Part shown: positions 7,319-32,000 of the stretch, one piece after another
Numbering within the stretch: position 1 is the first letter of the stretch
How the letters are laid out: every line of letters begins with the position of its first letter
Assembly (NCBI RefSeq): GCF_000008645.1
Contig: NC_000916.1
Location: 870,001-902,000 of the forward strand
DNA length: 32,000 nucleotides
Direction of reading: 5' to 3'
Source: Methanothermobacter thermautotrophicus str. Delta H
Lineage (GTDB): Archaea > Methanobacteriota > Methanobacteria > Methanobacteriales > Methanothermobacteraceae
Made by a program: the position numbers and the translations under genes
Notes under the pieces: generated by a model
Database searches by the model: none
Told to the model about the DNA's origin: nothing
What the model saw: only the letters and a program-made list of their open reading frames with translations

Positions 7319-8194
7319 TCAGAGATCTATTGTTGCCCTTCTGGGTTCCACACAGCATGCAAGCCTCATTGAGACTATCCTCACGCCGCTGGCCCTCTGG
7401 GGTCCCACCTTAATCATGGCCCCCAGGGCTGTCGTGGATCCCCCAAGACCAAGGGGCCCTGTCCCGGTACTGTTAAGGGATTCTGTGATGTGCTCCTCAA
7501 TCCAGGACTGTTCATCAAGATTTCCTGTTGCCATGGCCCTGAGCATAAGGCCAGTGGCCTCAAAATGAGTTCTCCCGATACCTATAGCCGGTATGCATGG
7601 TGTGCACCCCAGCATCGGGACCTCTGTTTTCATCCATGTTATAACTTCCTCAAATACTTTTCTATAACTGTGCCTGTGGAAGATCCTCCTTGTCCTCGCC
7701 CTTATCTCGGGACCCCCTCCAAGCATGAGGACATGGATCCTGACCCCCTCACCGGGCGCCGAATCCACCGTGAAGGGTGCCGGTGGGAGTTTCGCCGGGT
7801 CACTGTACAGTCCCCTGCTCTGCTCTATCCTCTCCACCTCATCACCCCTTACAGCCATTGGGCGTCCCGGGAGTTCCCTGAGGCCCTCCTCAACACCCCT
7901 CTTCAGATGGTTGAAGAATCCTGCAGGGAGGCTGGCGTCCTCCCCCACCTCCACTATCAGGTGGGGTATCCCTGTATCATCGCAGAGTGGTCTTCTCTCC
8001 CTTTCTGCTATGCGGGCGTTTTCAATTAGAAGTTCAAGTATCCATGCGGATCTCTCATCCTCCTCCACCTCAAGGGCCCTCTCGTAGGCCCTGAGGACGT
8101 CGGGGGAGTAGGTTGTGGATGCCTGGATGATGGCATCCCTGACTCTCCCGGCGAGATCCAAGCTATCCTCCCCCCACGGGTACAGCGAGGTCAC
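7319..8194 (-). CDS. Fe-S type hydro-lyase, fumarate hydratase/tartrate dehydratase alpha-domain family (divergent)
   Basis: 291 aa with ...RPLCDDTGIPHL..., ...GCTPCIPAIGIGRT... and ...GPLGLGGSTTAL...ACCVEPR. These correspond to the cluster-binding Cys and the GxGGxTTA motifs of class I fumarase alpha subunits, but the sequence is clearly diverged. The ATG at 8194 overlaps the upstream gene by 32 nt. An in-frame TTG at 8161 would remove the overlap. Confidence 0.7.
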   Translation of the reverse strand: MTSLYPWGEDSLDLAGRVRDAIIQASTTYSPDVLRAYERALEVEEDERSAWILELLIENARIAERERRPLCDDTGIPHLIVEVGEDASLPAGFFNHLKRGVEEGLRELPGRPMAVRGDEVERIEQSRGLYSDPAKLPPAPFTVDSAPGEGVRIHVLMLGGGPEIRARTRRIFHRHSYRKVFEEVITWMKTEVPMLGCTPCIPAIGIGRTHFEATGLMLRAMATGNLDEQSWIEEHITESLNSTGTGPLGLGGSTTALGAMIKVGPQRASGVRIVSMRLACCVEPRRATIDL

Positions 8195-9165: not shown

Positions 9166-10470
9166 TCACCTGCCAGACAGCTCCAGCATCACCTCAGCAA
9201 CAGGTTCCTGATCCGCCTCTTTTATAACCTCAAGCCTCTCTGTTTCATATCCAGGGTTCAGTTCCCTGAACTTCTCAACAATGTCATCCCAGGTGTAGGG
9301 TTCCTCGGGTTCACCCCGGGGGAGCTCCCTGTAGGCTGTAAGGACATCACCGTTTCTGAGCCTCACCGTCACCCTTGAAGGTCTCATGTTCCGGAGCTCC
9401 TCCATAGCAGGGTCCACCTCAATCCTTATCCGGGAGGCCATCTCTGGGGAAAATCCACCCTCAAGGTCTTCAACCCTCAGCTCTCCCCCCTCAAGCAGTA
9501 TGCCCAGTGAGACCGGGAGGCTCTGCCGCACAGCCTCCACGGTAGCCGGGGAGTAACTGTCATGCTCTGCTGCGATCCTGTAGGTTGAGACTATGACCTC
9601 CTCTATCTCCGATGCCCTGAAATCATTCTCCCTGATTATCTCGGCTGCAGCATCCAGGGTGGAGTGGAGGTGCCTGCAGACAGGGTACCTCTTGAGGTAA
9701 ACGTTCCTTATATGGAAAGCTCCGACTTCGGGTGATTCACCCCCGTAGCCATCTGAACGGCACATTGCACGCAGGAATCCCTCATCTCCCTCGATCACTG
9801 ATTCTGCGCCTGTGAATCCCTGGGAAGCGAGCCTGGCGGATATCAGGCCAGACTGGGCTGCCCTGCCCGCGTGGAGGTGCTTTGCCATCGTCCCGGCATG
9901 GTCAGATTCCAGGAGCCCTGCTGCCTGGGTGCCTGCAATCCCCAGGGCATTGACGACGGCATCCACATCGGAACAGATGATCCTTGAGGCTGCCGCTGCA
10001 GCTCCGAATGTTCCGCAGGTCCCTGTCGTATGGAATCCAAGCTCCCTGTGTCCTGGATTGGCGAGGATGCCCATGAAGATTGCTGCCTCGTATCCGGCGA
10101 CCATGGCTGTTATGAAGTCCCTGAAGGTGGCCCCGGTTGCCTCGGCAGCTGCAAGGGCTGCCGGGATCACACATGAACCAGGGTGCATCTGGGCCCCCCG
10201 GTGTCCATCGTCAAGGTCAAGGTTATGGGCGAATATGCCATTGAGGAGGGCTGCCCTTTCGGTGTCGCCCCTGCCATGGCCGATGATGGTGGCCCCGCCT
10301 GAGCCCTTACCCATGGCCCCCAGTGCCATCAGCCCGCTCATCTCAGAGGAGCCCCTCAGTGCAACTCCAAGGAAGTCCAGGAAGCATAGTCTGGCCATTT
10401 CAGTGGCATCTGGGGGTATGTCACTGTATGAGAGTGATGATACAAACTCCGCAAGTCTTCTGGTCATCAT
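9166..10470 (-). CDS. MmgE/PrpD family protein (2-methylcitrate dehydratase-like fold)
   Basis: N-terminal ...LAEFVSSLSYSDIPPDATEMARLCFLDFLGVALRGS... and ...NLDLDDGH..., ...HPGSCVIPAALAAAE... are hallmark PrpD-family segments. The track ORF starts at 10524, but homologues start near MMTRRLAEF, so I place the start at 10470. That also removes the overlap with tiaS. Confidence 0.85.
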   Translation of the reverse strand: MMTRRLAEFVSSLSYSDIPPDATEMARLCFLDFLGVALRGSSEMSGLMALGAMGKGSGGATIIGHGRGDTERAALLNGIFAHNLDLDDGHRGAQMHPGSCVIPAALAAAEATGATFRDFITAMVAGYEAAIFMGILANPGHRELGFHTTGTCGTFGAAAAASRIICSDVDAVVNALGIAGTQAAGLLESDHAGTMAKHLHAGRAAQSGLISARLASQGFTGAESVIEGDEGFLRAMCRSDGYGGESPEVGAFHIRNVYLKRYPVCRHLHSTLDAAAEIIRENDFRASEIEEVIVSTYRIAAEHDSYSPATVEAVRQSLPVSLGILLEGGELRVEDLEGGFSPEMASRIRIEVDPAMEELRNMRPSRVTVRLRNGDVLTAYRELPRGEPEEPYTWDDIVEKFRELNPGYETERLEVIKEADQEPVAEVMLELSGR

Positions 10471-10508
10471 TGATCCTACTATGTTGCCTTTAAATATAAC
10501 AGTGATTG

Positions 10509-11843
10509 TTATAAATCTTCCCATTTTTTATTAAGGGGGTCTGATTGCCGGGTGCTGCTGCTCTCAGTGGCTTCGGAGGGCGGGGAGCTGATTCCCATCC
10601 TCACGAGCTGCTTTGAGAGGTGCCTTCTGGCACAGGTTGGCACCTCATAGTATCCCTCACCAACTGACCTTTCAAGGGCCCTCCTGACCTTCCTGGAGCT
10701 TCTAAGCCTCCTTCCACAGGATGGGCACTTGAAACCCTTGTTCCTCCCGGCAGACTTCATGCGCTTACCGCAGGTGCAGATGGGGTTTTCCTCAACGTAG
10801 AGCTCTGCAAGCCTTTCGAGGTGGATCTTCTCGATGTTCATGGTCCCCTGGGCACCAATACCCCCGTAGACCGTGAGCACATCTCCGGGTATGAGTTCAA
10901 GGATGATCTTCCTGAAGTCCTTTGTGGGCTCGTAGGCTCCACATTCAATCTGGCCGGAGTCATCACCGAGGGTGAAGAACACATGGCCCCCCTCGATCAC
11001 CCTCGGACCGTCGATAACCTCACCCCGCACCCTGTAGCATCCGAAGGTCTCCATGTCTGCGATCCTCCCGGCGTCCTGTATGTGCTGGTCGGTGTGCTGG
11101 TTGGTCTCAAAGATGCAGTACCTTTCAACCTCCTCGTCAACACGGACCATCTCCATCGCCCTCAGGAGGACCTCCGGGGACTCTCCCCGTATACCGTAGA
11201 GTATGGGGCAGGGTGTGTGGGGTTCTATTGCAATGTAGTCTCCATCGATGTTATCAAAGGTTTCAGAACCGGTTTCATCATCCATCCTTGCAACCGACTC
11301 AGGGTCGATACGCCTGGGCTTACCATAGTTCTCAGGGACCCTGTAGGTCAGGAGTTCATAGGTGGAGTCATCCAGGGGGCATCCAATGGCTGCAAGGGCG
11401 CCTATGATACCCCTCCCCTTCTTGAAACCGTGAACCTCTGCACCGACCCTCTCTGCGAGCCTCCGGGCGTCCTCTATCCTGAGTATCCTCCTTATGGCTG
11501 ACAGGGCGAATTCCCTCATCTCCTCTGTGATCTCGCCGGTGTAGAATACAACGCCCGGGTTGGTCCTCTCACTATCAAGCTCGGCGAGTTCCTCCACCCC
11601 TTCAAGGACAATCCCCTTTACGGTGTTAAGGTCCTCCCTGGACTCTGCCAGCACAGTGAAGGTGACCGCACCGTTGCCACGGGTCTTGTGGGGTGCGAAG
11701 GGGTTGAGCCTTATCAGCCGGGGATGGTCCTCAAGGGAGAAACCGCAACTTTTAAGTTCCTGGATTATGACACATGATATATAGGTGGTGCACATCCCTT
11801 CAGGGGAATCTGTATCATCTATACCAACATGAAGCCTGTACAT
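10509..11843 (-). CDS. tiaS: tRNA(Ile2) 2-agmatinylcytidine synthetase TiaS
   Basis: MYRLHVGIDDTDSPEGMCTTY... is the characteristic TiaS N-terminus. It also has a C-terminal Zn-ribbon (CTCGKRMKSAGRNKGFKCPSCG). The ATG at 11843 has AGGTGA 6 nt upstream. The track's 11891 start adds 16 unlikely residues. Confidence 0.85.
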   Translation of the reverse strand: MYRLHVGIDDTDSPEGMCTTYISCVIIQELKSCGFSLEDHPRLIRLNPFAPHKTRGNGAVTFTVLAESREDLNTVKGIVLEGVEELAELDSERTNPGVVFYTGEITEEMREFALSAIRRILRIEDARRLAERVGAEVHGFKKGRGIIGALAAIGCPLDDSTYELLTYRVPENYGKPRRIDPESVARMDDETGSETFDNIDGDYIAIEPHTPCPILYGIRGESPEVLLRAMEMVRVDEEVERYCIFETNQHTDQHIQDAGRIADMETFGCYRVRGEVIDGPRVIEGGHVFFTLGDDSGQIECGAYEPTKDFRKIILELIPGDVLTVYGGIGAQGTMNIEKIHLERLAELYVEENPICTCGKRMKSAGRNKGFKCPSCGRRLRSSRKVRRALERSVGEGYYEVPTCARRHLSKQLVRMGISSPPSEATESSSTRQSDPLNKKWEDL

Positions 11844-17607: not shown

Positions 17608-18380
17608 CAGGTTCCAATGTGTATGTTTTCACTGAGTGACTTGAGGAGTTTTATTGCTGAGTATGCCGCCATAACACTGGTCTTGGGGTTAACAGAGCAG
17701 CGGACATTCTCGGTTATTGTCTTGAACTCGCCAAAGTCCCCCCTGACCGTCACCTCATGGACGTTGCGGTCAACCGCGGGGTCGGCTATTATCTCAACAT
17801 CAACATCACGGTCACAGGCGAGGCTGAGGGCCGCGGCAACGTTAATGTTAAGCGGGAACTTCTTAACAGCCTCGGATGCCCTGCCCCTGTAGAGGACCTT
17901 CTTCTCATCCATGCTTATGCCAAGTGACCGGGGGGGTTTTCTTGTGATGAGCTTAACAGATTCAATGTTCCCCATGGACGCTGCCTTGAGACCATCCAGG
18001 CCCACTATGGCTCCTGAGGGAACATGAATGGTGGCGTCATTCAGGGATGCAAGTTCAACCAGCATCTCCCTGAGTTCCGGGTCCATGAGGGCTCCGACAC
18101 TCATGACAACAACGTCCTTCCCTGCCTCAAGTATCTCAGGAACCAGGTCCCTCACCGCCTCCGGTGAAGCGGCCTCAACCACGAGGTCCACCTCAGGGAG
18201 CATGTCGGCAACATCAAGCACCGCCCTCCCATCCACCATTGAGGCAAGGTTCTCTGCCCTCTCAAGGTCCCGGTCATAGAAGAAACCAAGTTTAACCGGT
18301 ACCCTGCCATCCCTCACAAAACCTGTGATGAGGTTGGCTATTGCACCGCAGCCAACTATACCCACCATCATCAGTATCAC
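17607..18380 (-). CDS. nadX: L-aspartate dehydrogenase
   Basis: Rossmann N-terminus [10 protein letters not shown], plus the C-terminal ...[45 protein letters not shown]... segment typical of the NadX (TM1643-type) family. 257 aa. Confidence 0.85.
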
Positions 18381-18392
18381 GCAAAAATAGGA

Positions 18393-18722
18393 TCAGGATT
18401 CAACAGGGCTCACTTTCTTCTCCACCGAGACATCGGGTGATATTATCAGTATATCCCCAACTGCCTGTACCCTGTCATAGTTTATGTCTATTATGCCCTC
18501 CTCCTGTATGGGCCTTATCTCATCGGATTCAGGCACTATCCTTATGCTTGTCTTGAGGACGTCCTTTATACCCACGTTCTTCTTGTCATGCCGCATTGGC
18601 CTCACCTTGAGGGTTGAGACACGTCCCTTCTTGATGTTGAGGACAACATCCTGGACCCTTCCAACGTATTTACCCCTTGATGTGTATATTTCAAGTCCAT
18701 ATAGACTGGATAATTCAACCAT
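18393..18722 (-). CDS. PRC-barrel domain protein
   Basis: MVELSSLYGLEIYTSRGKYVGRVQDVVLNIKKGRVSTLKV is a typical archaeal PRC-barrel N-terminus. The ATG at 18722 is preceded by GGTGGTGG. The track's GTG at 18758 is less likely. Confidence 0.7.
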   Translation of the reverse strand: MVELSSLYGLEIYTSRGKYVGRVQDVVLNIKKGRVSTLKVRPMRHDKKNVGIKDVLKTSIRIVPESDEIRPIQEEGIIDINYDRVQAVGDILIISPDVSVEKKVSPVES

Positions 18723-18878
18723 TTTTCCACCACCAGACAGTTTAACAGGGAGCTCCACTGCATAAACCTGCTATTGGTTAATATTATTGTTTATAGCTTA
18801 AATACTTATAGGGAAATAATAGATCAGTGCGGCGGCAGAAAAGAGGCCGTTTCTTCATGATTGTGGATGGTGATTGGA

Positions 18879-19601
18879 ATGTGGGATACCAGTAAGGATT
18901 ACAGACTCATGGTTGCAGTTAAGGCAGTTGACCTCTTCAGGAGGACCCTTGAATCAGGGGGCTTCAGGGGGCAGTGGAAGAAGAAGCCCGCCCTTCAGGC
19001 TGCCGGTGAAATTGAGAGGATACTTCAGGGCCTCACATACTGTTACATGGAACCAGAAGATCTTGCCTCAAGCCCCGAGGTCATGGAGATCAAGGGAAAG
19101 GTTGAGGAGATAGTTGAGGCCCTTGGTGGTGAGGACTGGAGCCGGAGGTTCCTTGAGGAGGCCCCGCGTGAGGAGAGGGAGAAGGTTGAGGAGAACATTG
19201 CAAGGGTGCGGTTCTTCCTGAACACCCTTGGAAACCTTGACAGGAGGCTCATGCTCGGAAAGATATCTGACCCTGTGATCGGAGTTGATATAATTACAGG
19301 TGAGGTCATGAGCGTGGGGAACCATCCCGTGGCAGATAAGCTGCATGTGTGCAACGTGAATGCTGGTGGGAGGTCAATAAAGGTCGTCACCAATGACCTC
19401 GATGTCCGTGAGAATGACCATGTGGCTGTGGCACTCCTCCCCCCACAGAATTTCATGGGCGTGACCAGTGAGGGAATGTTCCTTGGTGTTGAAGGTGTCC
19501 TGAGGGATGTGGATGGTGAACCCGGTGAAATGCCCAGGGGGATACCCCTCGAGGCCCTCAACGAAACCCGGAACCTTGTTGAGGAGTTCCTGAAGAGTTA
19601 A
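18879..19601 (+). CDS. tRNA-binding domain protein (Trbp111/CsaA/EMAP-like OB fold at C-terminus)
   Basis: C-terminal ...IITGEVMSVGNHPVADKLHVCNVNAGGRSIKVVTNDLDVRENDHVAVALLPPQNFMGVTSEGMFLG matches the tRNA-binding OB domain found appended to MetRS/PheRS beta. GGTGAT lies 4 nt upstream of the ATG at 18879. The track ORF begins at TTG 18861. Confidence 0.72.
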   Translation: MWDTSKDYRLMVAVKAVDLFRRTLESGGFRGQWKKKPALQAAGEIERILQGLTYCYMEPEDLASSPEVMEIKGKVEEIVEALGGEDWSRRFLEEAPREEREKVEENIARVRFFLNTLGNLDRRLMLGKISDPVIGVDIITGEVMSVGNHPVADKLHVCNVNAGGRSIKVVTNDLDVRENDHVAVALLPPQNFMGVTSEGMFLGVEGVLRDVDGEPGEMPRGIPLEALNETRNLVEEFLKS

Positions 19602-20512
19602 CCCCTCCATGGCTCCCTTATGATCGCCCTGCAGACCCTGCTGCAGCTACCACAGTCACGTGGAATACTGCAACCCGCTGCCTTCAATCTGTCCTCAAGT
19701 CTCAGCTCAGAGGCCGGGTAGTAGCCAGAATAGTCAACCCTCTCAAGACCCTCTGCCCTGCATTCCTCAACGAGTCTCTCCATCAGCTCTCTGCCGGGCC
19801 CCCTGTGGTAGTAGAGCATGAAGTTTGGTCTGAAGCCTATGAGGCGGTAGGGTATCTCCGGGTCGATGGAGGCTATGAAGGCGGCTATTTCACGGATCTC
19901 ATGGTCATTGATCCCGGGGATCACCACTGTCCTGAAAACCCTTATCTTATCAGGGAACCTACCTGCAAGGTGGGCTGCGTTTCTGAGTACAGGTTCTGCA
20001 GGTGCACCTGTGAGGTTCCTGTGAAGCTCATCTGAAAGGGCCTTTATCTCAAAGCTGAAGAGTGATGTTAACCCTATGAGCCTCCTTAGGGTTCCAGGGG
20101 TTGAGAACCCGTTTGTTGCGAGGATAACACTGACATCGATTTCTTCCCTTACTCGCCTTACCAGCTCCTCAATGTAGGGTGTGTGTATGGATGGTTCTCC
20201 CCCTGTGAAGCTGATATTTGAGATTCGCTCATGTGATTTAATTGCAGTGATGGCCTCATCTGCAAGTTCCTCTGCTTCAACGTGTCCCCTGTAGATCCAG
20301 CCAGAGTGGGGGTACTGGGATATGCGGTAGGCGTTACAGTAGGCGCACCGGAATGGGCAGCACAGGAATGTGACGGAATAACTTCTCAGGGTTTCTGAGA
20401 TGGATGTGTATGCTATTTCTGTTTCTGATGCACCGCACACGCCCCTTTCCCCATCACTCCGATTTGCACCGCACCTCCACTCACAGAGCATGCATCTCCC
20501 TGATTCATCCAT
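19598..20512 (-). CDS. Radical SAM protein, pyruvate formate-lyase activase-like
   Basis: CPFRCAYCN (CxxxCxxC radical SAM cluster motif), an N-terminal CMLCEWRCGANRSDGERGVCG motif, GGEPS glycine-rich SAM motif, and C-terminal extra Cys residues (GCSIPRDCGSCSRVC). Confidence 0.85.
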   Translation of the reverse strand: MDESGRCMLCEWRCGANRSDGERGVCGASETEIAYTSISETLRSYSVTFLCCPFRCAYCNAYRISQYPHSGWIYRGHVEAEELADEAITAIKSHERISNISFTGGEPSIHTPYIEELVRRVREEIDVSVILATNGFSTPGTLRRLIGLTSLFSFEIKALSDELHRNLTGAPAEPVLRNAAHLAGRFPDKIRVFRTVVIPGINDHEIREIAAFIASIDPEIPYRLIGFRPNFMLYYHRGPGRELMERLVEECRAEGLERVDYSGYYPASELRLEDRLKAAGCSIPRDCGSCSRVCRAIIREPWRG

Positions 20513-20671
20513 GGTAACAGTTTATGGGATGTGATTAATACATTTTTCTGAAAAGTAGGGGAGTTTTTATGCAGGTGATGAAAAGGTGAAGGTACTGTGA
20601 TATTGACGAATATCTCCAGAGAATAAAGATATGATGATGGCATTCCAAAAAAAATTAAAATTGGAATGGAT

Positions 20672-21856
20672 TTATGCTATCTGCCAGTAGGTGGATGTCT
20701 TCTTAACGTACCTGTAGGTCCAGTAGTATCTCCACTTGTATCTCCATTTACCGTAGTACCTGTACCATTTCTTGTACCATTTCTTCACCTTCACCTTAAC
20801 GTAGTAGGTGAGGGTCACTGGCTTCATGATTGTGTAACTTGCTGATGATACCGCTGATGATGCGCCGTTAACAACTGCAATGAATTTCAGTGCTGTTGAT
20901 TTGCTCAGAACCAGTGGCGCTGTGTATTTTGTGCTGTTGACTGTTGGTGTGGAGCCATTGGTTGTGTAGTATATTGTTGAGTTTGCAGGGCCTGTGAGTG
21001 TCACGGTAACATTTTTGAGGTATATTCCTGATGCCGGGCTTGCAGATGGTGCTGCTGGAGTTGATGTGACCGCTGCTGGTGTGAGGTCGCCCACGGTAAC
21101 ACTGTGGAGTCCTGCTGGCAGTTCGTATGTGAATGTGACTTCCCTGGTTTCTCCTGTGGCGAGGGTCACTGTCTTGGTGTCCTTCACCTCACCGTTGACC
21201 TTAAGCTCAGCTGTGTAGTCCCCTGCAACACCTGTGTTTGTGACATTGACTGTCACGTTCACGGTGAGGGGTGCGCTGCCGCTCAGGGGGTTAACTGTGA
21301 GGTTTGCCAGTGAGAAGTGTGGCTGCAGGTCCACTGTGAGGTTGGTGGAGTTCAGTACTGTTTCATTTTCAATTCCGCCGGTTGAATTCAGCTGGAATGC
21401 CACTGAACTTGCCCTTACCCTGAAGACCTTACCATTTGCATTTTCAACGACGAAGAGCCACCTGTAACTATTTCCATCTTCCATGAAGAGCTTTGCTGCT
21501 CCCTGGGGTACCGGTGCCCCTGTGAAGGAGCTGAGCCAGACCTCCTGGACACCTTCAGGTACCGTGTAATCTGCTGAGGGTCCGCTGAGGTCACCGGTGT
21601 AGTACCACTTTATGGTTGCATCTGTGATGTTACCCTCAAGGAGTTCAAGCTTTGCATCGACCGCAACTGTGGGATCAACGTCCTGGAGGTCATCACTGTA
21701 GTTAACATCGACAATTATCTGTGCGGGGTCCGAGGCGTTCTGCTGCATTGTCAGGTTAACAGCATTGGATGGTATATCTGCTGCTGATGCACCTGAGATA
21801 CCTGCAGCGAATGCAAGCAGGACCAGTAATGGTAGCACAATATGTTTGTCTTTCAA
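20672..21856 (-). CDS. Secreted/cell-surface protein with signal peptide, CARDB-like and Fn3-associated-like beta domains and a W/Y/K/R-rich C-terminal tail
   Basis: TTG start is preceded by GGAGGTGA 4 nt upstream. Signal peptide is MKDKHIVLPLLVLLAFAAGISGASA. I count about 15 N-x-S/T sequons. The segment LTVNPLSGSAPLTVNVTVNVTNTGVAGDYTAELKVNGE...TREVTFTY resembles CARDB adhesion domains. The tail is VKVKVKKWYKKWYRYYGKWRYKWRYYWTYRYVKK. Confidence 0.75.
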   Translation of the reverse strand: MKDKHIVLPLLVLLAFAAGISGASAADIPSNAVNLTMQQNASDPAQIIVDVNYSDDLQDVDPTVAVDAKLELLEGNITDATIKWYYTGDLSGPSADYTVPEGVQEVWLSSFTGAPVPQGAAKLFMEDGNSYRWLFVVENANGKVFRVRASSVAFQLNSTGGIENETVLNSTNLTVDLQPHFSLANLTVNPLSGSAPLTVNVTVNVTNTGVAGDYTAELKVNGEVKDTKTVTLATGETREVTFTYELPAGLHSVTVGDLTPAAVTSTPAAPSASPASGIYLKNVTVTLTGPANSTIYYTTNGSTPTVNSTKYTAPLVLSKSTALKFIAVVNGASSAVSSASYTIMKPVTLTYYVKVKVKKWYKKWYRYYGKWRYKWRYYWTYRYVKKTSTYWQIA

Positions 21857-22350
21857 GTTTTCACCTCCACATTATCATCAGATATTAGATAGATATATTT
21901 AATATAAAAATTTTTTTGTTTAACTGGAATCATAAGACTTAAGTTCTGTTATTAATTTAAATCTTGAGAATTTACATATAATTCAAGTCAAGTACATTAA
22001 AAATTGGTATGAACCATATTTACCTAGAAATAGCAGATTATGGCCCCCCCCAGATCCAGTCTCAGGTATTGTCATGAATCAGATCACTTCAAACATGACT
22101 GACAATTTTTTATTAAAAAAATAATTACATATACTTTTTTATTAAAAATTGTAGCTGCCTGAGAACCCTTTATAAAAATTTTGAACCCCCATTATGATCT
22201 GAATCACTCATATAGATCATATTAATCCAGAAAAACGCCAAAATATCCATTCAGATTACCCTTATTAAAATAGGGAACAATTCAGGGGATTATTCAGTTC
22301 TCAATCAAAGTTCTGAAAAATTAAGGAGAGGGTGCATTCAGCGGACCGGA
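21857..22350. other. ~0.5 kb AT-rich non-coding region upstream of the surface-protein gene
   Basis: No ORF of 60 aa or more on any frame. It is visibly much more AT-rich than the flanking DNA and has multiple TATA-like strings. It also contains a duplicated ttttttattaaaaa (22105 and 22135) and an isolated C8 run at 22044-22051. Confidence 0.7.
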
Positions 22351-23762
22351 TCAGTTTTCATTTAGGACTATCAGCTTTGTGCGTGTCATGTCCCTTATGG
22401 CGTACTTGACACCCTCCTTACCCATTCCACTGCACCTGAATCCCCGAAGGGCATGTGGTCCACCCTGAATGTGGACTGCTTGTTTACAAGCACTGTGCCT
22501 GCCTCAATTTCCCTGGCCATCCTGAGGGCCGTCCTTATGTTCTCTGTGAAGACCCCTGCCTGAAGTGCATAGCAGGTCCCGTTGGCAATTCTTATGGCCT
22601 CATCAGCACCATTAAACCTTATTATTGGGGAGACCGGGCCAAAGGTTTCCCTTTCAATAACCTCCATGCCGGGCACCACATGGTCAAGCACCGTGGGTTC
22701 AACAAAGTTACCCCTCCTTGAACCGCCACAGAGGAGTTCAGCACCATCCTCAACCGCCGCCCCGATTACCCTCTCAACCTCAATGGCGGCATCCTCATTT
22801 ATCAAGGGCCCAACATCTGTTCTTACATCCATTGGGTCCCCGGCCCTTAAACTCCCTGTTATGTTCACGAGTTTATCTGCGAATTCATCGGCCACGTCCT
22901 CATGGACTATCATCCTCTTAACGGCTATGCAGACCTGTCCAGAGTAGAGGTAGGATCCCCTCACAGCAGCCTCCACTGCAGAGTCGATGTCCGCGTCATC
23001 CATGACAATGAGGGGGTCGTTGCCTCCCAGTTCAAGGGTGATCTTCTTCATGGAGGCCCTGGCAGATATGTACCTCCCGACCTCAACACTTCCAGTGAAG
23101 GTTATCTTATCAACGAGGGGGCTGTCAATGATAACATCCCCCACCTCTGAGCCCCTCCCGGTTACAGCGTTAACAGCGCCGGCCGGGAAGTGCTCACTGA
23201 GGATCCATGCCAGCTTCAGTGCAGATAGTGGGGCCTCGAGGGATGGCTTAAGGATCGTGGTGTTACCGGCTGCAAGGGCCGGGCCAACCTTGTGTATTGC
23301 AAGGTTGAGGGGATAGTTGAAGGGGGTTATTGCCGCAACAACCCCGAGGGGGATTCTGACTGTGAAGCCAGTGAGACCCTTCCCGCCTATACCCGCGTCC
23401 ATGGGGATTGATTCACCGTAGAGCCTTCCTGCCTCCTCTGCAGAAAGCCTTGCAGTTTCAACTGACCTCTTCACCTCGTCACGTGAGAACCTTATTGGTT
23501 TTCCTGACTCAAGGGTTATCAGCCTTGCAAATTCATCCAGTTCTGTCTTCAGTTCGTCTGCAACGTCATAGAGTTTCTCAGATATCTTCCTGGCTGATAG
23601 GTCCGCCATTGCATCCCTGGCCCGGTGGGCCGCCCTTATGGCCCTCTCAACATCACTTCGACCTGCAAGTGGGACCCTATCCACCTCATCCCCGTTGAAG
23701 GGGTTCCTGACGGTGAAGATTTTCTCTCCACTCACCCCCTCGCCATCAATAATCATCTCCAT
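22351..23762 (-). CDS. NAD(P)+ aldehyde dehydrogenase (lactaldehyde dehydrogenase/GapN-like); frame-interrupted near the 3' end in this sequence
   Basis: ALDH signatures are ...LELGGNDP... (catalytic Glu) and ...[11 protein letters not shown]... (catalytic Cys). The continuous ORF is 22395..23762. The canonical C-terminus [33 protein letters not shown] is read in the adjacent frame and ends at 22351 (see findings). Confidence 0.88.
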
Positions 23763-23857
23763 CTGGAAACACCCCGTAAAGGATCAGCCCACAGAGACGT
23801 AGCCCTGCTCTGGATTATAGATTCAAAATTATAAATCAATCAAAGCCGGTATGTGCC

Positions 23858-24049
23858 CTAGAACTTGTTCTTAAGGCCCTTTATCGAGTTTGTAACATTC
23901 TGAACATCTGAGTTCATGGCTGTTTGAGATCCCCTGACATAGTTGCGGTACCATACAACCGCCACCGTTACGATGACTATTATACCCCCGAATACAAGTA
24001 TGAGTTCAGCGGATCCCTGACCTGATTCATCGGCAATTAAACCATGCAA
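23858..24049 (-). CDS. Class III signal peptide protein (archaeal type IV pilin-like)
   Basis: 63 aa. ...SGQGSAELILVFGGIIVIVTVAVVWY matches the G-Q-x-S/A-x-E + hydrophobic helix pattern of archaeal prepilin-type (class III) signal peptides. It lies 13 nt downstream of the TadC-like gene. Confidence 0.7.
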   Translation of the reverse strand: MHGLIADESGQGSAELILVFGGIIVIVTVAVVWYRNYVRGSQTAMNSDVQNVTNSIKGLKNKF

Positions 24050-24062
24050 AGCCTTAACCTCC

Positions 24063-25004
24063 CTATGGTGCCATGCTACTTACAAGTGTCATTCCGAAAC
24101 TTCCTATCACATAGAATATTGCATATGCCATTATGGAGAGCGGAACAGCGAATTTAACACCCTTCCTTGCACTCCCGTACATTATGATGCCTATCAGGAG
24201 CCCTGCTATTATGGAGTGAATTATTATGTAGCCTGAAGCAGCGATCTTTGCAGCCCCAAGGATGGGGTTTGGTTTTCCCACTGACTCCATGAAACCTGAG
24301 TAGACCATTATCATCCCCAGGGCGAAGGGTGCTGCGATTATGGCCGCGACAACAAGGAACATGACTGACATCATGACGTTGGCCTTCCTCTCCCTCTTAA
24401 GTGCAAGTACCGCCCTCAGGTCCTCTGCAACGGTTTCAATGACATCTGAAAGGCTTCCACCGGCTCTTCTACCCTCAAGTATCATCCGGAATGTCCTGTC
24501 AAGGTTTTTTGACTTCAGGCGCTCGCTCATTGATAGTATGGCTTCATCGAATGTTCTGCCGATCTTTATCTCAATAACAGCCCTCTTCAGTTCATCATAG
24601 AGGGGTCCCTCCCCCTGTCGGGATACATCCTCAAGGGCTGATTCAAGGCCCACACCCGCCCTCAGGAGAGAGGCTATCTGCCTCAGGAAGTCGGGTGTTG
24701 ACTGTTCAATGGCATCAACGCGCCTCTCCATCATTATGAAGATGTACGCCCCCAGCATGATTGATGGCAGGGAGAATCCTACCAGTACTGCGAGGATAAC
24801 ACTTAAACCAAGAAGGGCTGCAACAACGGATGCGAGAACTGCAAATATGGCCCCTCCAAGGAATGCAAGGGTTACTATCTCTGATGCCTTTACATACAGC
24901 CCGGTCCTTATGAGGGTCTCCTGCAGCCTGAGGAGCAGCCTATCAGGTATTATGTTCTCAAGGGCATCGCTCATTGGTTTCAGTGCGCTTGGTACTACGG
25001 CCAT
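24063..25004 (-). CDS. Type II secretion system F-domain membrane protein (TadC/FlaJ-like pilus assembly platform)
   Basis: 313 aa, polytopic. The cytoplasmic segment [23 protein letters not shown]...[31 protein letters not shown]...[26 protein letters not shown] is the typical T2SS-F/TadC domain. Confidence 0.8.
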
Positions 25005-25078
25005 CTCAACACCACATTCCAGTGTAACATCATGCTCTGTTACTAACTATCTGGCGCCTATTATTTATAATTACCACA

Positions 25079-26089
25079 TCAACTCAGTGCATCAGGCAGC
25101 CGGTTCATAACACCATCACCCACCACGACCATGTCCTCAACCCGCACACCGAACTCGCCCGGGATGTAGATCCCTGGTTCAACTGTCAGGACCATCCCTT
25201 TCCTCAGGACGGTTTCATCACCTGCTGCCAGGGATGGCTTTTCATGGACATCCAGGCCCACTCCATGACCTGTTGAGTGTATGAAGTTATCAGCATAGCC
25301 ATATTCCCCTATAACTCCTCTGACAGCACTGTCAACATCACATGCCCTTGCACCAGGTTTGAGGGCCTTCACCCCCGCCCTTTTAGCTTCAAGGACAATT
25401 TCAAGTACCTCATGCTCCCCTTCACCCTCAACGATTGTCCTTGTGGTGTCAGAGTGGTAGCCCTCCCTGACAGCCCCCCAGTCAATCAGTACCGGTGACT
25501 CGATGGTGTTTGCTGTTGGCACTGCATGGGGGATGCTTGACCTCTCCGATGATGCCACTATGGTGTCAAAGGAGACCCCCTCAGAACCGGCCAGGCGCAT
25601 GGTGTAGTCAAGTCTGGCGGCTATCTCAATTTCAGTCCCATTAAATTCAAGTTTTTTGAATGAGTTCTCTGCTATCCTCAGGGCCTCCTCCATCCTTTTA
25701 AGTTCCTCCCTGTCCTTGACCATCCTGATATCTGATACAGGATCCATGACCCTGAAGTCCCCACCGATGCCGAGCCTCTCAAGGAGGCCCACGGGGGTGG
25801 CCGGTTCAACAAGCACGCCTGAGAGGTCGAATGATTCCCTCACATCCCTTATTCTCTTGAAGGTCCTCACATCAACCCGGGATTTCGCCATGGCGGATTC
25901 TCTATCCATCTCACTCACAAGGAGTACCGGTTCATCCTCAAGGATCAGGAATGAGGTGGCTGTTGGCATGAAGCCTGAGAGGTAGTATATGTTCTTCCTT
26001 GCAGTTATAAGGGCCCTTTCGCCCTCCTCATGAATATTCTCAAGGGCACATTCGATTCTATTCAACCTATCACCTTTCCATACATCCAT
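25079..26089 (-). CDS. M24 family Xaa-Pro dipeptidase/aminopeptidase
   Basis: 336 aa. Metal-ligand motifs of the pita-bread fold are ...VLIDWGA...YHSDTTRT..., ...HSTGHGVGLDVHE..., ...TVEPGIY..., ...VRVEDMV. Confidence 0.85.
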   Translation of the reverse strand: MDVWKGDRLNRIECALENIHEEGERALITARKNIYYLSGFMPTATSFLILEDEPVLLVSEMDRESAMAKSRVDVRTFKRIRDVRESFDLSGVLVEPATPVGLLERLGIGGDFRVMDPVSDIRMVKDREELKRMEEALRIAENSFKKLEFNGTEIEIAARLDYTMRLAGSEGVSFDTIVASSERSSIPHAVPTANTIESPVLIDWGAVREGYHSDTTRTIVEGEGEHEVLEIVLEAKRAGVKALKPGARACDVDSAVRGVIGEYGYADNFIHSTGHGVGLDVHEKPSLAAGDETVLRKGMVLTVEPGIYIPGEFGVRVEDMVVVGDGVMNRLPDALS

Positions 26090-26110
26090 TCATCACCAGA
26101 GGACAGAGAG

Positions 26111-26602
26111 TTAAATATCCTCTCCCTCATTCAGAAACTTAAGTATCCTCTCCCTCATTATGCCTTCAAGTTCATCCATAACAAGCTCCGGGACCTTACC
26201 TTCAAGTGGGACAGGTATGTGGCCGAACTCTCTGTCCCTGAAGGTTTCGCCTCCGAACCTGACCGGCCTGCTGTACCTTGGATGGAAGTGCCAGTGCACC
26301 TCAGGGTCCGGATCCTCTGATCTGAAGGCCGAGTTCTTGAAGCAGCTCCAGTTGAAGAGGTCCGGGTTGAAAAGTTCCCTCACGGCAGACTCAAGGCACC
26401 TTAGAATCCATGCAAAATCAGCCCACTCCCCATCCATGAGCTCTGAGAGGTCCCTGCACTTCCTTCTGAGGGCCACGACGCATGTCCCGAGGTATCGCTG
26501 GCTCGGTGCAAGGTAGATTATCCAGTGCCGTGTTCTGGCAAGTTCGCGTCCATAGTACCCATCCAGGCCACAGTATTCACAGGAAGCCACAGGAATCACC
26601 AC
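26111..26602 (-). CDS. HIT (histidine triad) family protein
   Basis: 163 aa with the histidine triad ...EVHWHFHPRY (HxHxHxx). GTG start at 26602 as in the track. Confidence 0.72.
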   Translation of the reverse strand: MVIPVASCEYCGLDGYYGRELARTRHWIIYLAPSQRYLGTCVVALRRKCRDLSELMDGEWADFAWILRCLESAVRELFNPDLFNWSCFKNSAFRSEDPDPEVHWHFHPRYSRPVRFGGETFRDREFGHIPVPLEGKVPELVMDELEGIMRERILKFLNEGEDI

Positions 26603-26637
26603 ACCATTTAATAAGGTTTAATTAAGAGTATACCTCC

Positions 26638-26646
26638 TTATATATA
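26638..26646. promoter_or_regulatory. Palindromic TATA element (TTATATATA) between the divergent HIT and Fe-ADH genes
   Basis: This is the best TATA-like string in the 26603-26706 spacer. It lies ~36-40 nt from the HIT GTG start on one side and ~20-25 nt from the first ATG of the 43-bp repeats on the other. Pattern-based only. Confidence 0.4.
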
Positions 26647-26663
26647 GAACATGGGGTGCCATG

Positions 26664-26765
26664 ATGAAATCTGTACTGAACCAGGCACTGAAGAACATAA
26701 CATCCCATGAAATCTGTACTGAACCAGGCACTGAAGAACATAACATCCCATGAAATCTGTACTGA
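26664..26765. repeat. 43-bp perfect tandem repeat, 2 full copies plus a 16-nt third start
   Basis: atgaaatctgtactgaaccaggcactgaagaacataacatccc occurs at 26664-26706 and 26707-26749. A third copy, atgaaatctgtactga, runs from 26750 and then diverges. Confidence 0.95.
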
Positions 26766-27923
26766 TCCAGATCAGGGACTGGTGGTGAAGTTGGGGGAAC
26801 TTAGAAAATTCGTTACAAGTGAATTCGTATTTGGTGACAGGGCAAGATTCCTTGCTGGCAGATACGCCCTGAACCTCGGAGCCGACAGGTCCTCCTTGTG
26901 ACCGACAGGGGGTTAATGAAGACTGGATTCGTTGAGGATGTCAGCTCCTCCCTTGAGGAGGAGGGCCTCGAATATGTCATCTTTGATGATGTGACGCCCA
27001 ACCCCCGTGACCATGAGGTCATGGAGGGTGCTGAGGTCTTCGATGCCGAGGAATGCAACATGATAGTTGCCCTGGGTGGTGGAAGCCCCATTGACTGTGC
27101 AAAGGCCATGGGTGCTGTTGTATCCAACAGGATGCACGTACTTGACTTTGAGGGTGTTGATATGATCCCGACCCCCTCGGTTCCCATAATATGCATCCCC
27201 ACAACTGCAGGGACAGGAGCGGACGTCTCCCAGTTTGCAATCATCCTCGACACCCGGAGGATGGTGAAGATAGCCATCATAAGCAAGGCCATGATACCCG
27301 ACGCATCACTCATAGACCCTGAGACCACCGTCACCATGGACCGGGAACTGACAGCTTCAACAGGTATGGATGCCCTTGCCCATTCCATCGAAGCCTATGT
27401 ATCCAATGCAAGCTTCCATCTGACTGACCTCAACGCCCTGGACGCCATCAGAATCATAAGCAGGTGCCTCCCATCTGCCGTTGATGAACCCGAGAACATG
27501 GAGTACCGTGAGGGTATGATGCTTGCAAGCCTCGAGGCTGGCCTTGCATTCTCAAATGCCAGTCTGGGACTTGTCCATGCAATGGCCCACAGCCTTGGAG
27601 GCAAACTTGACATGGCCCACGGTGAGGCCAATGCACTGCTACTTGAACACGTGATAGAATTCAACTACCCTGGAGCCACTGAACGGTACCATGAAATCGC
27701 ACGGGCAATGGGCCTCAGGGGCTCGGGGCCCGCCGAGCTCATTGATTACATCCGGGAATTCAGGTCCAGCATAGGGATCGACATGACCCTGGAGGATCTC
27801 GGCGTCGGGGAGGACGACATACCTGAACTTGCAGAGGCCTCAATGAAGGACCCCTGCATTGTAACAAACCCTGTACGGCCCTCAATTGAAGATGTTGAGG
27901 CCATATTCAGGAGGGCCCTCTGA
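26707..27923 (+). CDS. Iron-containing (group III) alcohol dehydrogenase; frame-interrupted near the 5' end in this sequence, true start uncertain
   Basis: ORF 26898..27923 carries ...ALGGGSPIDCAKAMG..., ...IPTTAGTGADVSQF... and ...HAMAHSLGG...HGEANA..., which are Fe-ADH signatures. The family N-terminus (...FVTSEFVFGDRARFLAGRYALNLGADR) lies in ORF 26707..26901 in the adjacent frame. Possible starts are ATG 26707, GTG 26782/26785 and TTG 26791. Confidence 0.85.
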
Positions 27924-27935
27924 GGTGCTGGTGAA

Positions 27936-29033
27936 ATGTCTGATAGAGACTGGGAAACCCTCCGGGAAAAGATAATCGGATTCGGTGAGAAATCCGTAAG
28001 GAAGAGCTACTACCCGAGACTTCAGGAGTCAATGGCCGAACTTGAAAGGTTCAGAAAACTCCTTGACTGCGCAGATGACGCCATATTCCTGGTTAAAATC
28101 CCTGGTGGTGAACTCGTGGATGCCAACCGTTCAGCCTGTGTAATGCTAGGATACTCCACCAGGGACATCCCGGGACACATGGTATACGATCTCCTGCCAG
28201 GGGAACTCCACAATGTATTCCGTGGAATACTGGAGGGTGATGAAGACAGGGTGACCATGGATGGCCGTTTACTTAAGAGGGACGGCGATGAGGTGCCCGT
28301 TGAGATAAAGGTAAACATCCTTGATTTTAAGGGTGATAGATACGCTGTGCTCGTTGCCAGGGATATAAGCGAGAGGCTGAGGATGGAGTCAGAGCTGATG
28401 AAATCCCTCAGGGAGAATGAGGTCCTTCTGAGTGAGATACACCACAGGGTCAAGAACAACCTCCAGATAATATCAAGCCTTCTGAGCCTCCAGAGCCATG
28501 GTATCGATGACCCATCATGCAGGTCTCTTCTTTCAGAGAGCCAGGACAGGATAAGGTCAATGGCACTCATACATGAACAGCTCTACCGCTCAGGGGACTT
28601 CAGCTCCATAGAATTCTCATCATATGCCTCAAGGCTCCTCAAGAACCTCAAAAGATCATACGCCCCCGGGAAGAATATCGAGCTATCACTGGACACCGAA
28701 AACCTGAAACTCAGCCTTGAGACATCAATACCCCTTGGCCTCATGCTCAGCGAGCTTGTGACCAATGCCCTCAAACATGCCTTTAAGGGAAGAGATAGTG
28801 GTAATATAATTGTTAAATTTAAAAAGGATGGTGATTACTGTGTCCTTGAGGTCAGGGATGATGGTGTGGGTTTCAATGAGGAGAAGATCAGGAACAGCAC
28901 CTCACTGGGCTTTAGACTTGTTGAAATACTCACAGAACAGCTGGACGGATCACTGACATACTCCGGAGAGAACGGAGGACTTTTCAGAATAAGGTTCAGA
29001 GAACCCCTCTACAAGGACAGACTGACCAATTAA
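27936..29033 (+). CDS. Sensor histidine kinase: PAS domain + HisKA_2-type dimerisation/phosphoacceptor + HATPase
   Basis: PAS-like region ...LLDCADDAIFLVKIPGGELVDANRSACVMLGYS...RDGDEVPVEIKVNIL.... H-box is EIHHRVKNNLQIISSLLSLQ. ATPase N/G boxes are ...ELVTNALKHAF... and ...VRDDGVGF.... No TM helix, so it is predicted cytoplasmic. It starts 12 nt after the ADH stop, with GGTGA upstream. Confidence 0.85.
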   Translation: MSDRDWETLREKIIGFGEKSVRKSYYPRLQESMAELERFRKLLDCADDAIFLVKIPGGELVDANRSACVMLGYSTRDIPGHMVYDLLPGELHNVFRGILEGDEDRVTMDGRLLKRDGDEVPVEIKVNILDFKGDRYAVLVARDISERLRMESELMKSLRENEVLLSEIHHRVKNNLQIISSLLSLQSHGIDDPSCRSLLSESQDRIRSMALIHEQLYRSGDFSSIEFSSYASRLLKNLKRSYAPGKNIELSLDTENLKLSLETSIPLGLMLSELVTNALKHAFKGRDSGNIIVKFKKDGDYCVLEVRDDGVGFNEEKIRNSTSLGFRLVEILTEQLDGSLTYSGENGGLFRIRFREPLYKDRLTN

Positions 29034-29045
29034 ATACAATTAACA

Positions 29046-29050
29046 TTTTT
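29046..29050 (+). terminator. Oligo-T tract in a short AT palindrome after the histidine kinase gene
   Basis: aacatttttaatgtt (6-nt inverted arms around T-rich centre) lies ~10 nt after the stop codon. This is weak, pattern-based evidence. Confidence 0.3.
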
Positions 29051-29190
29051 AATGTTCTGAGAGGATTATACACCTTATACCGTCTCAAGCTTTATTAAAG
29101 GCTTGAAGGGTTAAATAAAGGTTTTTGTATCTCTGCAGGTGGTGAAGGGTCATTTCATGGCCCCATCAAAGCCCATGGAAAGCATTATAA

Positions 29191-29790
29191 ATGGTGCCCT
29201 ATGTTAATATGAATATGGTTAGATTCAACAGGGAAGAGGTCAGGGACATTCTCGTGTCCATGGTTGTAATTGCAGGCGTATTCGCCTATGTTTTCTCAGG
29301 AAAGAACATTCAGACTGCACTGGTTCTTCTTCCAGCAACCCTGATCACGGTTGGCCTTGGATTTGTCCTCCATGAGATAGCCCATAAACTGATGGCCATA
29401 AGGTACGGTTTCTGGGCAGAATACAGGCTATGGCTTGAGGGCCTTCTGCTTGCACTGGTAACGGCCTACTTCGGATTTGTCTTTGCAGCCCCGGGTGCGG
29501 TCTACATCCATGGCAACTACATTGAGAGAGATGTGAACGGTAAGATATCCCTTGCAGGACCCCTAACAAATATAATCCTTGCAATCATGTTCCTCATGGT
29601 ATCCACGGTACTCCCATCACCCATCAACCAGGTGGCGTTCCTTGGATACGCTGTCAACAGCTTCCTCGCCCTCTTCAACCTCATACCCCTCGCGGTGCTT
29701 GATGGGGCCAAGGTTTTCAGGTGGAACCCCCTGATCTGGCTCCTTGCAGCCGCAGCTGCATTTGGGCTGACATTCAACAGCATGCTCTGA
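29191..29790 (+). CDS. M50 family (site-2 protease-like) membrane zinc metalloprotease
   Basis: HEIAH (HExxH) sits within a TM helix, followed by the downstream [10 protein letters not shown] (NxxPxxxLDG) motif. Multiple TM helices. The start is ambiguous among ATGs at 29191, 29209 and 29215. Confidence 0.8.
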
Positions 29791-29799
29791 GTGGTTAAG

Positions 29800-30983
29800 A
29801 TGTTCCGGGATATTCCTGTCAGGTACATTGGATGCACCCACAGGCCGTGAGGCCCTCTGAGACCCTGAAGGCCTTCGGGGACAAACTCTCCATGATAGGT
29901 GTTACAAGGATCACCGAGATAACACACCTTGACCGCATCGGCATACCCGTATTCTCCGCCATAAGACCAACAGCAGAGGATGGAGCTGTGAGCATATACG
30001 CCGGTAAGGGCGCCACCAGAACCCAGGCAAGGGCCTCGGCCATGATGGAGGCCTTTGAGAGGTATTCAGCAGAAAGAAAGCCCGAAGATGAAACATTCAC
30101 AGCTCACCCAGAGGACTGTGACGGCCTTGACCCTGAGTCACTGATACTTCCAGGGTCCACTGATCTGAAATCTGAACTGGAGTGGATTAATGCAGAGAAC
30201 CTCACCGGTGATGAGGAGGTCCCGGTACCTGCAAATGCTGTTTTTCATCCATACAACCCTCCGGAAGGCTGCATGAGTCTGTTCCGATCAAACACCAATG
30301 GACTTGCATCAGGGAATGCAAGGGAGGAGGCCATATTCCATGGGCTGATGGAGGTGATTGAAAGGGATGCCTGGAGCCTCTTCGAGGCTAGGAGGGGTCC
30401 CAAAGTGGAGGTTGACTGCTCAGGGACGGATAATGATATAATATCAGGACTCCTTGAGAAGTTCCATGCCGCTGGTGTGGAGGTGACCCTGGTTGACCTT
30501 ACAGCAGACACCGGGGTTGCGACGGTGGCTGCGGTTGCAGATGACACCGTCCTGAGGGATCCGGCCCTCCTCACCATGGGCGTCGGGACCCACCTTGACC
30601 CTGAAATTGCGGTTATAAGGGCCCTCACAGAGGTCGCCCAGAGCAGGGCCACCCAGATACATGGAACCCGTGAGGACACCGTCAGGGCCGAGTTCATGAG
30701 ACGTGCCGGGTATGAGCGTATGAAGAGACTCAACAGGCACTGGTTCAGTGAACCGGAGGACACGATTACCCTGGATGAGATGGAGGACCTCTCAACAAGG
30801 TCATTCAGGGGAGACCTTGAGATAACCCTCAGGAAACTGCGTGAATCCGGTCTAGAGGATGTTTTCTATGTTGACCTCACCCGTGATGTGGGGGTCCCTG
30901 TCGTCAGGGTCATAGTTCCGGGCCTTGAGGTCTTCTCTGTTGACCCGGAACGTGTGGGGCGTCGCATCAGGTCCTCCATCTGA
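29800..30983 (+). CDS. ycaO: YcaO-domain protein (methanogen TfuA-associated YcaO, peptide backbone thioamidation); frame-interrupted after codon ~15 in this sequence
   Basis: ORF 29832..30983 contains ...[24 protein letters not shown]... and the YcaO ATP-binding signature ...[25 protein letters not shown].... The expected N-terminus [15 protein letters not shown] is encoded from ATG 29800 in the adjacent frame (see findings). Confidence 0.87.
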
Positions 30984-31101
30984 GGATTCTGTAAAGATCC
31001 GATTCTGTCAAGTGTTTCCAGATGCAGGAGCTCCTCCTTCTGATATCCGGACCAATTTATCATCTAAAAGATTAATTATCAGCGCCAAGATACCAACCAG
31101 T

Positions 31102-31751
31102 ATGCATGGTAAGAAAATAATCATCTTCACGGGACCATCCCTATCACACACTGAAGCCTCCAGTATCCTTGAAGCTGAGTACAGGCCACCGGTGAGAAGG
31201 GGTGACATTCAGGAGGCCATGAAGGAGAACCCGGACATAATAGGCATAATAGACGGTGTTTTCCACCAGAGCCCTGCTGTTGGTCACAGGGAGATCATTG
31301 ATGCCATCAGGAGGGGTGTGAAGGTGGTTGGAGGGGCCAGCATGGGGCCCTGAGGGCCTCAGAGCTCAGTGAACTTGGAATGGTGGGTGTTGGCCGCATC
31401 TTCAGATCATACCTTGATGGTGAAATCGAATCGGATGATGACGTTGCAGTGGCCTTCAACCCTGACACCCTTGAGCCCCTCTCTGACTCCCTTGTCAGCA
31501 TAGAATTCAACCTTAAAAGAGCCCTCATGAGGGGTGTGATAAGAGAGGATGATTTCAGGGAGCTTATGAATACCGCGAAGAACCTCTTCTACCCCCTCCG
31601 AAATTACAGGAGGATCCTCCATGAAAGCGGGATCCCTGATGATACCAAAGAATCCCTGCGTTCCTTCCTTGAATCAGAGGGGAGGGACCTTAAAAGGGAG
31701 GATGCGCTGGAGGTCATCCGTCATATAAAGAAACTTGCATCTACAGGATAG
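31102..31751 (+). CDS. tfuA: TfuA-like protein (YcaO partner); split into two ORFs by a frame interruption in this sequence
   Basis: MHGKKIIIFTGPSLSHTEA...PPVRRGDI...IIGIIDGVFHQSPAVGHREIIDAIRRGVKVVGGASMG (frame 1, to 31353) continues as ALRASELSELGMVGVGRIFRSYLDGEIESDDDVAVAF... (frame 0, ORF 31380..31751). Together they give a complete TfuA domain. Confidence 0.85.
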
Positions 31752-31904
31752 GTTCCAGAAAGTAAGGGATAGAACTACACATAACAGAACCCAAATACGC
31801 AGAGATGAGACTGAACCAAACTAATAACAGAACCATGGACTGCTGCATTCAGACTACAGCGAAATGATGAACCTCACAGGACCTAGAATTATGGATGTGT
31901 TATC

Positions 31905-32000
31905 ATGGATCTTGAATCAAAGGTTGAAAGGGTTAAGACGGCCCTCAGGGGTGAGAGGATCGCCGTTGGATTCTCGGGTGGTGCTGACAGCACAGCCCTT
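31905..32000 (+). CDS. PP-loop ATP pyrophosphatase superfamily protein, first 32 codons (continues beyond window end)
   Basis: My translation from ATG 31905 is MDLESKVERVKTALRGERIAVGFSGGADSTAL. SGGxDS is the PP-loop motif (adenine nucleotide alpha-hydrolase, LarE/ThiI/TtuA-like). The ORF is open to the window end. Confidence 0.6.
   Translation, partial: MDLESKVERVKTALRGERIAVGFSGGADSTAL

Follow-up and report, generated by a model that had tools for sequence, protein, structure and literature searches.

The stretch of DNA analysed here, referred to as the window, is 32,000 nucleotides of the Methanothermobacter thermautotrophicus str. Delta H genome (NC_000916.1, positions 870,001 to 902,000). 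Within it, four genes between positions 22351 and 31751 are each broken once by a change of reading frame: those for a lactaldehyde dehydrogenase of the ALDH family, an ErcA-like protein of the iron-containing alcohol dehydrogenase (Fe-ADH) family, YcaO and TfuA. We consider it close to certain that all four breaks are single-base base-calling or assembly errors in the 1997 genome record, and that they represent neither pseudogenes, frameshifting, slippage nor gene loss. The window is that 1997 record; it differs at precisely these runs from the re-sequenced genome of the same strain (CP064324.1), and its short alleles are private to it. The real DNA at the four sites would read GGGGG, GGG, GGG and GGGGG on the coding strand and would encode an intact lactaldehyde dehydrogenase, ErcA-like Fe-ADH, YcaO and TfuA. 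The four under-calls in G/C runs would then be a few of several hundred such discrepancies in the genome as a whole.

The breaks were located by six-frame translation. A first-pass annotation made from the letters of the window had placed them at the same runs, and had claimed that each is mended by one additional G and that the conserved protein continues in the next frame every time. Both claims were borne out by translation, and the first by CP064324 as well. Adding one G to each coding-strand G-run (a C on the plus strand for ALDH) produced uninterrupted open reading frames (ORFs) of 470, 405, 394 and 216 amino acids, which match the CP064324 gene calls exactly. The genes and the discrepant sites, including a fifth in the spacer between ycaO and tfuA, are as follows.

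22351..23762, minus strand: lactaldehyde dehydrogenase gene (ALDH family; AAB85474), 470 amino acids when repaired; the window ORF, 22395-23762, stops early after the frame change
22442..22445, minus strand: error site 1, in ALDH; CCCC on the plus strand (GGGG coding) should be five bases; CP064324 has CCCCC
26707..27923, plus strand: Fe-ADH gene, ErcA-like (AAB85481), 405 amino acids when repaired; AAB85481 is a remnant of 341 amino acids at 26898-27923
26888..26889, plus strand: error site 2, in Fe-ADH; GG should be GGG; CP064324 has GGG
29800..30983, plus strand: ycaO, YcaO-related McrA-glycine thioamidation protein (MTH_987, AAB85484), 394 amino acids when repaired
29843..29844, plus strand: error site 3, in ycaO; GG should be GGG, giving the Ala codon GCC; CP064324 has GGG
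31102..31751, plus strand: tfuA, TfuA-related McrA-glycine thioamidation protein (AAB85486), 216 amino acids when repaired
31344..31347, plus strand: error site 4, in tfuA; GGGG should be GGGGG; CP064324 has GGGGG
31024, plus strand: error site 5, intergenic (ycaO-tfuA spacer); surplus G in the window, GATGCAGG against GATCAGG

Read on the minus strand, the ALDH gene proceeds to ...FRVDHMPFG and then drifts to a stop, and the adjacent frame carries the protein on from CCCC at 22442-22445. In Fe-ADH the reading ...RYALNLGADR is followed by a stop, and the next frame resumes with VLLVTDRGLMKTGF at GG 26888-26889 (junction NLGADR/VLLVTDRG). The ycaO junction, ...GCTHR/AVRPSETL..., lies at codon 15, with a stop in the first frame and resumption at GG 29843-29844; the 1997 annotation of MTH_987 is an ORF of 383 amino acids (29832-30983) that starts at an internal ATG, and RefSeq likewise takes this ORF as the gene. 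The tfuA gene is split in the window into a 5' part that runs to 31353 and an ORF of 123 amino acids at 31380-31751 (AAB85486); here ...GVKVVGGASMG is followed by a stop and then by ALRASELSELGMVGVG from GGGG 31344-31347 (junction GGASMG/ALRASEL). Junction-spanning peptides derived from the sequences of the repaired proteins include VDHMPFGGFR, YALNLGADRVLLVTDR and GVKVVGGASMGALR. The surplus G at 31024 adjoins the palindrome GGAGCTCC.

An exact-sequence look-up connected the truncated ORFs to the 1997 record. They are exact matches to AAB85474.1 (455 amino acids, O27059), AAB85481.1 (341 amino acids, O27065), AAB85484.1 (383 amino acids, MTH_987, O27068) and AAB85486.1 (123 amino acids, O27070), and each of these truncated proteins was found on one contig only, that of the 1997 Delta H record. 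The full-length ALDH (470 amino acids) and TfuA (216 amino acids) occur on tens of contigs from NCBI, JGI/IMG, ENA and Logan in the same 90% clusters. Full-length Fe-ADH, of 377-406 amino acids depending on the start called, likewise occurs on tens of contigs from these sources.

Next, we compared the window directly with the re-sequenced genome, CP064324.1 (GCA_027554905.1, 1,751,429 bp), a PacBio re-sequencing of Delta H; the 1997 record is 1,751,377 bp long. The new assembly was reached by exact protein look-up with the histidine kinase encoded at 27936-29033 and the MmgE/PrpD protein encoded at 9166-10524. Over window positions 17938-32000 there are no mismatches and five one-base indels. 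Four of these are the predicted extra C or G at the runs listed above, and the fifth is the window's surplus G at 31024. Over positions 1-20524, five substitutions (3782, 3818, 3841, 7988 and 14989) and one compensated indel pair were found, which agrees with the earlier claim that nothing comparable to the four breaks occurs at 1-22 kb. The 32-kb window thus carries 12 discrepant bases in all.

At all five substituted positions, a T in the window stands against a C or G in the new assembly. Three of them (3782, 3818 and 3841) lie in one 60-bp stretch of the gene for the ATPase proteolipid (c/K subunit) and lead to E36G, N44D and T56A; those at 7988 and 14989 are synonymous. Their uniform T suggests a second systematic type of miscall in the 1997 record. 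The compensated pair, an added A at 4918 and a missing G at 4924, lies in atpI (A-type ATPase subunit I), where it alters three codons, so that the window reads ...EGTALTD... and the re-sequenced genome ...EGHCVTD...; the frame is regained and no lasting break results.

The discrepancies in the window are instances of a described phenomenon. According to the main text of Casini et al. 2023 (PMC10579436), Delta H was assembled de novo from PacBio reads with Canu and Arrow polishing, and the result differs from NC_000916.1 by 448 single-nucleotide differences and 247 indel bases; 91 old genes lack a counterpart in the new assembly, and 92 new genes lack one in the old. As that study compares the same two assemblies of the same strain (NC_000916.1/AE000666 and CP064324), our four sites belong among its indels, although its main text, supplementary tables aside, does not list these sites or genes individually. 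For M. marburgensis, about 15% of the genes not shared with Delta H were attributed to gene splits by single-base frame shifts (Kaster et al. 2011, PMC3087415). A full-text literature search with five guessed MTH locus tags, of which only MTH_987 is confirmed, returned no paper on these genes. A general excess of similar discrepancies in the record is therefore present both in the window (12 bases) and, in the literature, genome-wide.

The alleles of other assemblies were then scored. When the intact ALDH, TfuA and Fe-ADH proteins were looked up, 30 further loci were obtained from Logan single-run assemblies, ENA metagenome assemblies and an NCBI metagenome-assembled genome (MAG), and every locus was scored around each discrepant site that it covers. 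The extra base was present in all independent loci at the ALDH (23/23), Fe-ADH (17/17), ycaO (15/15) and tfuA (16/16) sites, and the window's G at 31024 was missing from 15/15. The comparison of orthologous loci and independent assemblies that the first-pass annotation had proposed as a check therefore recovered the short alleles in 0/23, 0/17, 0/15 and 0/16 loci, and its preference for base-calling or assembly error over four pseudogenes is upheld, as every independent assembly covering a site carries one more G. At the Fe-ADH site, three of the 17 loci have GAG instead of GGG at the same length, indicating that no homopolymer is needed for the extra position. Over 3.0-4.4 kb, contigs of SRR22315772, SRR22315773, SRR22315775 and SRR20247623 differ from the window by the ALDH indel alone. 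Against window positions 28451-32000, contigs of SRR22315773 and SRR22315775 show 0 mismatches and exactly three indels (29843, 31024 and 31344). A pseudogene should show its break reproducibly in the DNA of the lineage; the four genes are instead intact in every other assembly, including these otherwise window-identical ones. At the level of assemblies, a single run length was found at each site across those examined, with no sign of phase-variable polymorphism in run length. What was found is what an artefact would leave: a variant that is absent from re-sequencing of the same strain and private to one record, in a record with an excess of discrepancies throughout.

Conservation outside the strain was addressed with a set of other species, obtained by scanning genome contigs with the repaired YcaO. 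The scan yielded 66 loci from other Methanobacteriaceae, namely one 83%-identical Methanothermobacter MAG and more distant members of the family, with no M. thermautotrophicus genome and no named Methanothermobacter species among them. A single tblastn high-scoring segment pair (HSP) crosses the position of the break, with 8 residues on either side, in 40/40 loci for ALDH, 16/18 for Fe-ADH, 63/65 for YcaO and 9/9 for TfuA, and the identity of these spanning HSPs is 47-86%. A frame break conserved in the DNA of orthologues, as would mark a programmed frameshift or slippage site, was thus not found in this set.

The fit to family models changed with repair. For ALDH, the score against Pfam Aldedh rose from 501.8 bits (profile positions 7-436) to 532.2 bits (7-460 of 461), and that against NCBIfam NF040648, the methanogen lactaldehyde dehydrogenase model with an equivalog cut-off of 650, from 616.1 to 670.1 bits. 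Fe-ADH improved from 152.1 bits (profile 29-168) to 171.2 bits (3-168) against Pfam Fe-ADH and from 533.8 to 589.4 bits against the ErcA-like model NF041833 (equivalog cut-off 550). The two TfuA fragments, with 42.3 and 67.2 bits against Pfam TfuA and 125.3 and 136.8 bits against NF033432 (cut-off 235.2), became one protein with 148.0 and 302.4 bits, respectively, the latter over profile positions 1-210/211. ALDH, ErcA and TfuA thus cross their equivalog cut-offs upward on repair. YcaO gains only 2.8 bits against TIGR03266 (cut-off 365), from 595.0 bits over positions 3-376 to 597.8 bits over 1-376/376, and Pfam does not discriminate between its repaired and unrepaired forms because the break lies upstream of the domain. 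Better family fit, the other check that had been put forward, is accordingly clear for three genes and marginal for ycaO. As repair scarcely shifts the ycaO family scores, the evidence for it comes from the DNA comparison and from N-terminal conservation; and because the 383-amino-acid ORF retains 374/376 positions of the equivalog profile, ycaO was never a convincing knockout. The expectation that ycaO and tfuA are intact in this organism agrees with the scores of the repaired genes against TIGR03266 and NF033432, both above cut-off. After correction the two show no difference from the methanogen ycaO-tfuA pair for McrA thioglycine: they are full-length and adjacent, as in related Methanothermobacter contigs, and the split tfuA and short ycaO N-terminus are artefacts of the record.

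The uniformity and clustering of the errors were examined in turn. The earlier claim of a uniform direction, deletion in G-runs, holds for the four genic sites and fails for the insertion at 31024. G-runs make up 58% of the G/C runs of length at least 2 on coding strands in the window (58:42), so that four out of four on G has a P of ~0.11; a coding-strand G bias was rejected as a biological signal and ascribed to chance. Moreover, one of the four genes lies on the opposite strand, and the coding strand is irrelevant for a sequencing process. Five indels in 9.4 kb compare with 1.33 expected from the published genome-wide rate (Poisson P = 0.012). Across the genome, chance alone should produce about two 9.4-kb stretches with as many indels, and the clustering was not retained as special; over the whole 32-kb window, seven indel bases against 4.5 expected are unremarkable. 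Locally the indels are mildly in excess, as would be expected if coverage of the old shotgun assembly was poor there.

As to the physical origin of the errors, gel-based dideoxy sequencing is subject to band compression and under-calling at G/C-rich self-complementary motifs, and a G-run near complementary C-rich sequence is the classical context. Three of our sites resemble this context in that the G-run is closely trailed by complementary C-rich sequence: AGGGCC-GTGA-GGCCCT at ycaO (GGGCC...GGCCC), GGGGGCCCTGAGGGCC at tfuA (GGGGGCCC...GGGCC) and CCCCCGAAGGG at ALDH. We folded 41 nucleotides of DNA around each corrected site, on both strands, and compared the results with 200 shuffles. The ycaO site forms the 5' arm of a 6-bp GC hairpin, with -9.5 kcal/mol on the minus strand (z = -2.98; 1/200 shuffles as good), and the tfuA site lies in a modest GC stem of 5 bp. 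At ALDH and Fe-ADH, folding was no better than in the shuffles. Hairpin compression was accordingly rejected as a uniform cause, with notable structure at ycaO only, weaker structure at tfuA and none at ALDH or Fe-ADH. The five local errors include an insertion, at 31024, and other discrepancies in the window include substitutions to T, which indicates that the error process was not compression alone. Secondary-structure compression may have contributed at some of the sites.

Several points weigh against attributing the breaks to errors of the record. The comparisons above involve assembled sequences, and a true difference in the DNA sequenced in 1997 retains a small probability. The compression mechanism is weakly backed, with no significant hairpin at ALDH or Fe-ADH and with two of the "runs" consisting of GG only. 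Most independent loci were fetched with a single intact protein as exact query, so that the site within that protein is biased; this is countered by loci fetched via a different gene, which also cover each site and carry the long allele. The Logan runs may be DNA or RNA libraries. Finally, the re-sequenced genome is built from long reads, which are prone to homopolymer errors of their own, a concern countered by the independent assemblies and the other species. Taken to its end, this last concern would mean that the old record is right and that CP064324, along with the others, carries homopolymer insertion errors. Long-read platforms do make such errors, and CP064324 was built from PacBio reads. 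However, many Logan and ENA contigs, independently assembled, side with CP064324, the long alleles give full-length conserved proteins above equivalog cut-offs, and distant species keep the frame despite different nucleotide contexts. We regard such an error in the new assemblies as exceedingly improbable.

The deletions could instead have been real in the Delta H culture or clone library of 1997, in a frameshifted laboratory lineage that was later lost or was absent from the stock re-sequenced around 2020. Loss of one base in a G-run is a genuine class of mutation, the five indels are mildly clustered, and the alleles of the window are uncheckable against the original reads. Such an account would nevertheless require four independent inactivating deletions in 9 kb, besides the 247 indel bases genome-wide, which if real would mean a type strain that is viable despite hundreds of frameshifts. 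It would also leave alleles that are shared neither by the strain's other assemblies nor by relatives at 98-99.9% identity, together with an intergenic insertion and a compensated indel pair that are typical of miscalls and not of mutation filtered by selection. We hold these real deletions to be very unlikely. Very little probability likewise attaches to the corollary of a 1997 stock that was heterogeneous, or hypermutating by G-run deletion, and that kept growing as a methanogen despite the natural loss of tfuA, lactaldehyde dehydrogenase and the ErcA-like protein. As for the possibility that the short runs are true and that the genes are expressed by programmed ribosomal frameshifting or by transcriptional slippage, the direct resumption of the conserved protein in the next frame, each time at a G-run, is what recoding would look like. 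The four loci share with known genes of this kind (prfB with +1 frameshifting, dnaX with -1, insertion sequence (IS) transposases) two overlapping frames that make up one protein with a homopolymer junction. In those genes, however, relatives have the break in their DNA too, and a slippery motif and stimulatory elements accompany it, whereas here no other DNA of the strain or of its relatives has the break. The extra G is already present in the DNA of the same strain and all relatives, making recoding unnecessary. In addition, slippage would need a far longer run than the GG present at two of the sites; the runs GGGG, GG, GG and GGGG offer no slippery heptamer and no conserved slippery motif common to the four sites; and relatives with GAG at the Fe-ADH site keep the length. 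We give recoding next to no credence. Cumulatively, the comparisons favor base-calling or assembly error in the 1997 record as the probable cause of all four breaks.

Other features were observed near the affected genes. At the 5' end of the Fe-ADH/ErcA-like gene (26664-26770), there are 2.5 tandem copies, with 98% match, of a 43-bp unit, ATGAAATCTGTACTGAACCAGGCACTGAAGAACATAACATCCC. Both Delta H assemblies have two full copies of it, and a single copy is found in eleven related strains, whose aligned parts are ~97-98.5% identical. The upstream ATG of the 405-amino-acid Fe-ADH call results from the duplication; RefSeq and the relatives use a form of 377 amino acids. A 28-bp tandem repeat (26104-26159, 2.0 copies, 89% match) overlaps ORF 26111-26602 (minus strand) at its 3' end, as well as the spacer that precedes the M24 peptidase gene. 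Beyond the 3' end of the window, downstream of the QueC-like gene that adjoins tfuA, a CBS-domain gene of 281 amino acids is called as two ORFs (132 and 137 amino acids) in some Logan assemblies. It is split in SRR29056415, SRR29056416, SRR29056417 and SRR29056418 (at 4963-5808 in one locus) and intact in CP064324 and in the SRR22315773 contig; that near-identical lineage may carry a genuine mutation here.

The general cause of these breaks is already published, and they hold no new biology. They matter in that the 1997 record and the UniProt and GenBank proteins derived from it (O27059, O27065, O27068 and O27070) still circulate and misrepresent the genes as truncated or split. Scans of the 1997 record for clustered frame breaks will mostly rediscover the ~250 published indel bases, and CP064324 is preferable for inferring gene loss, pseudogenes or recoding in Delta H. 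Among the genes so misrepresented is tfuA; the thioglycine of methyl-coenzyme M reductase requires it along with ycaO.

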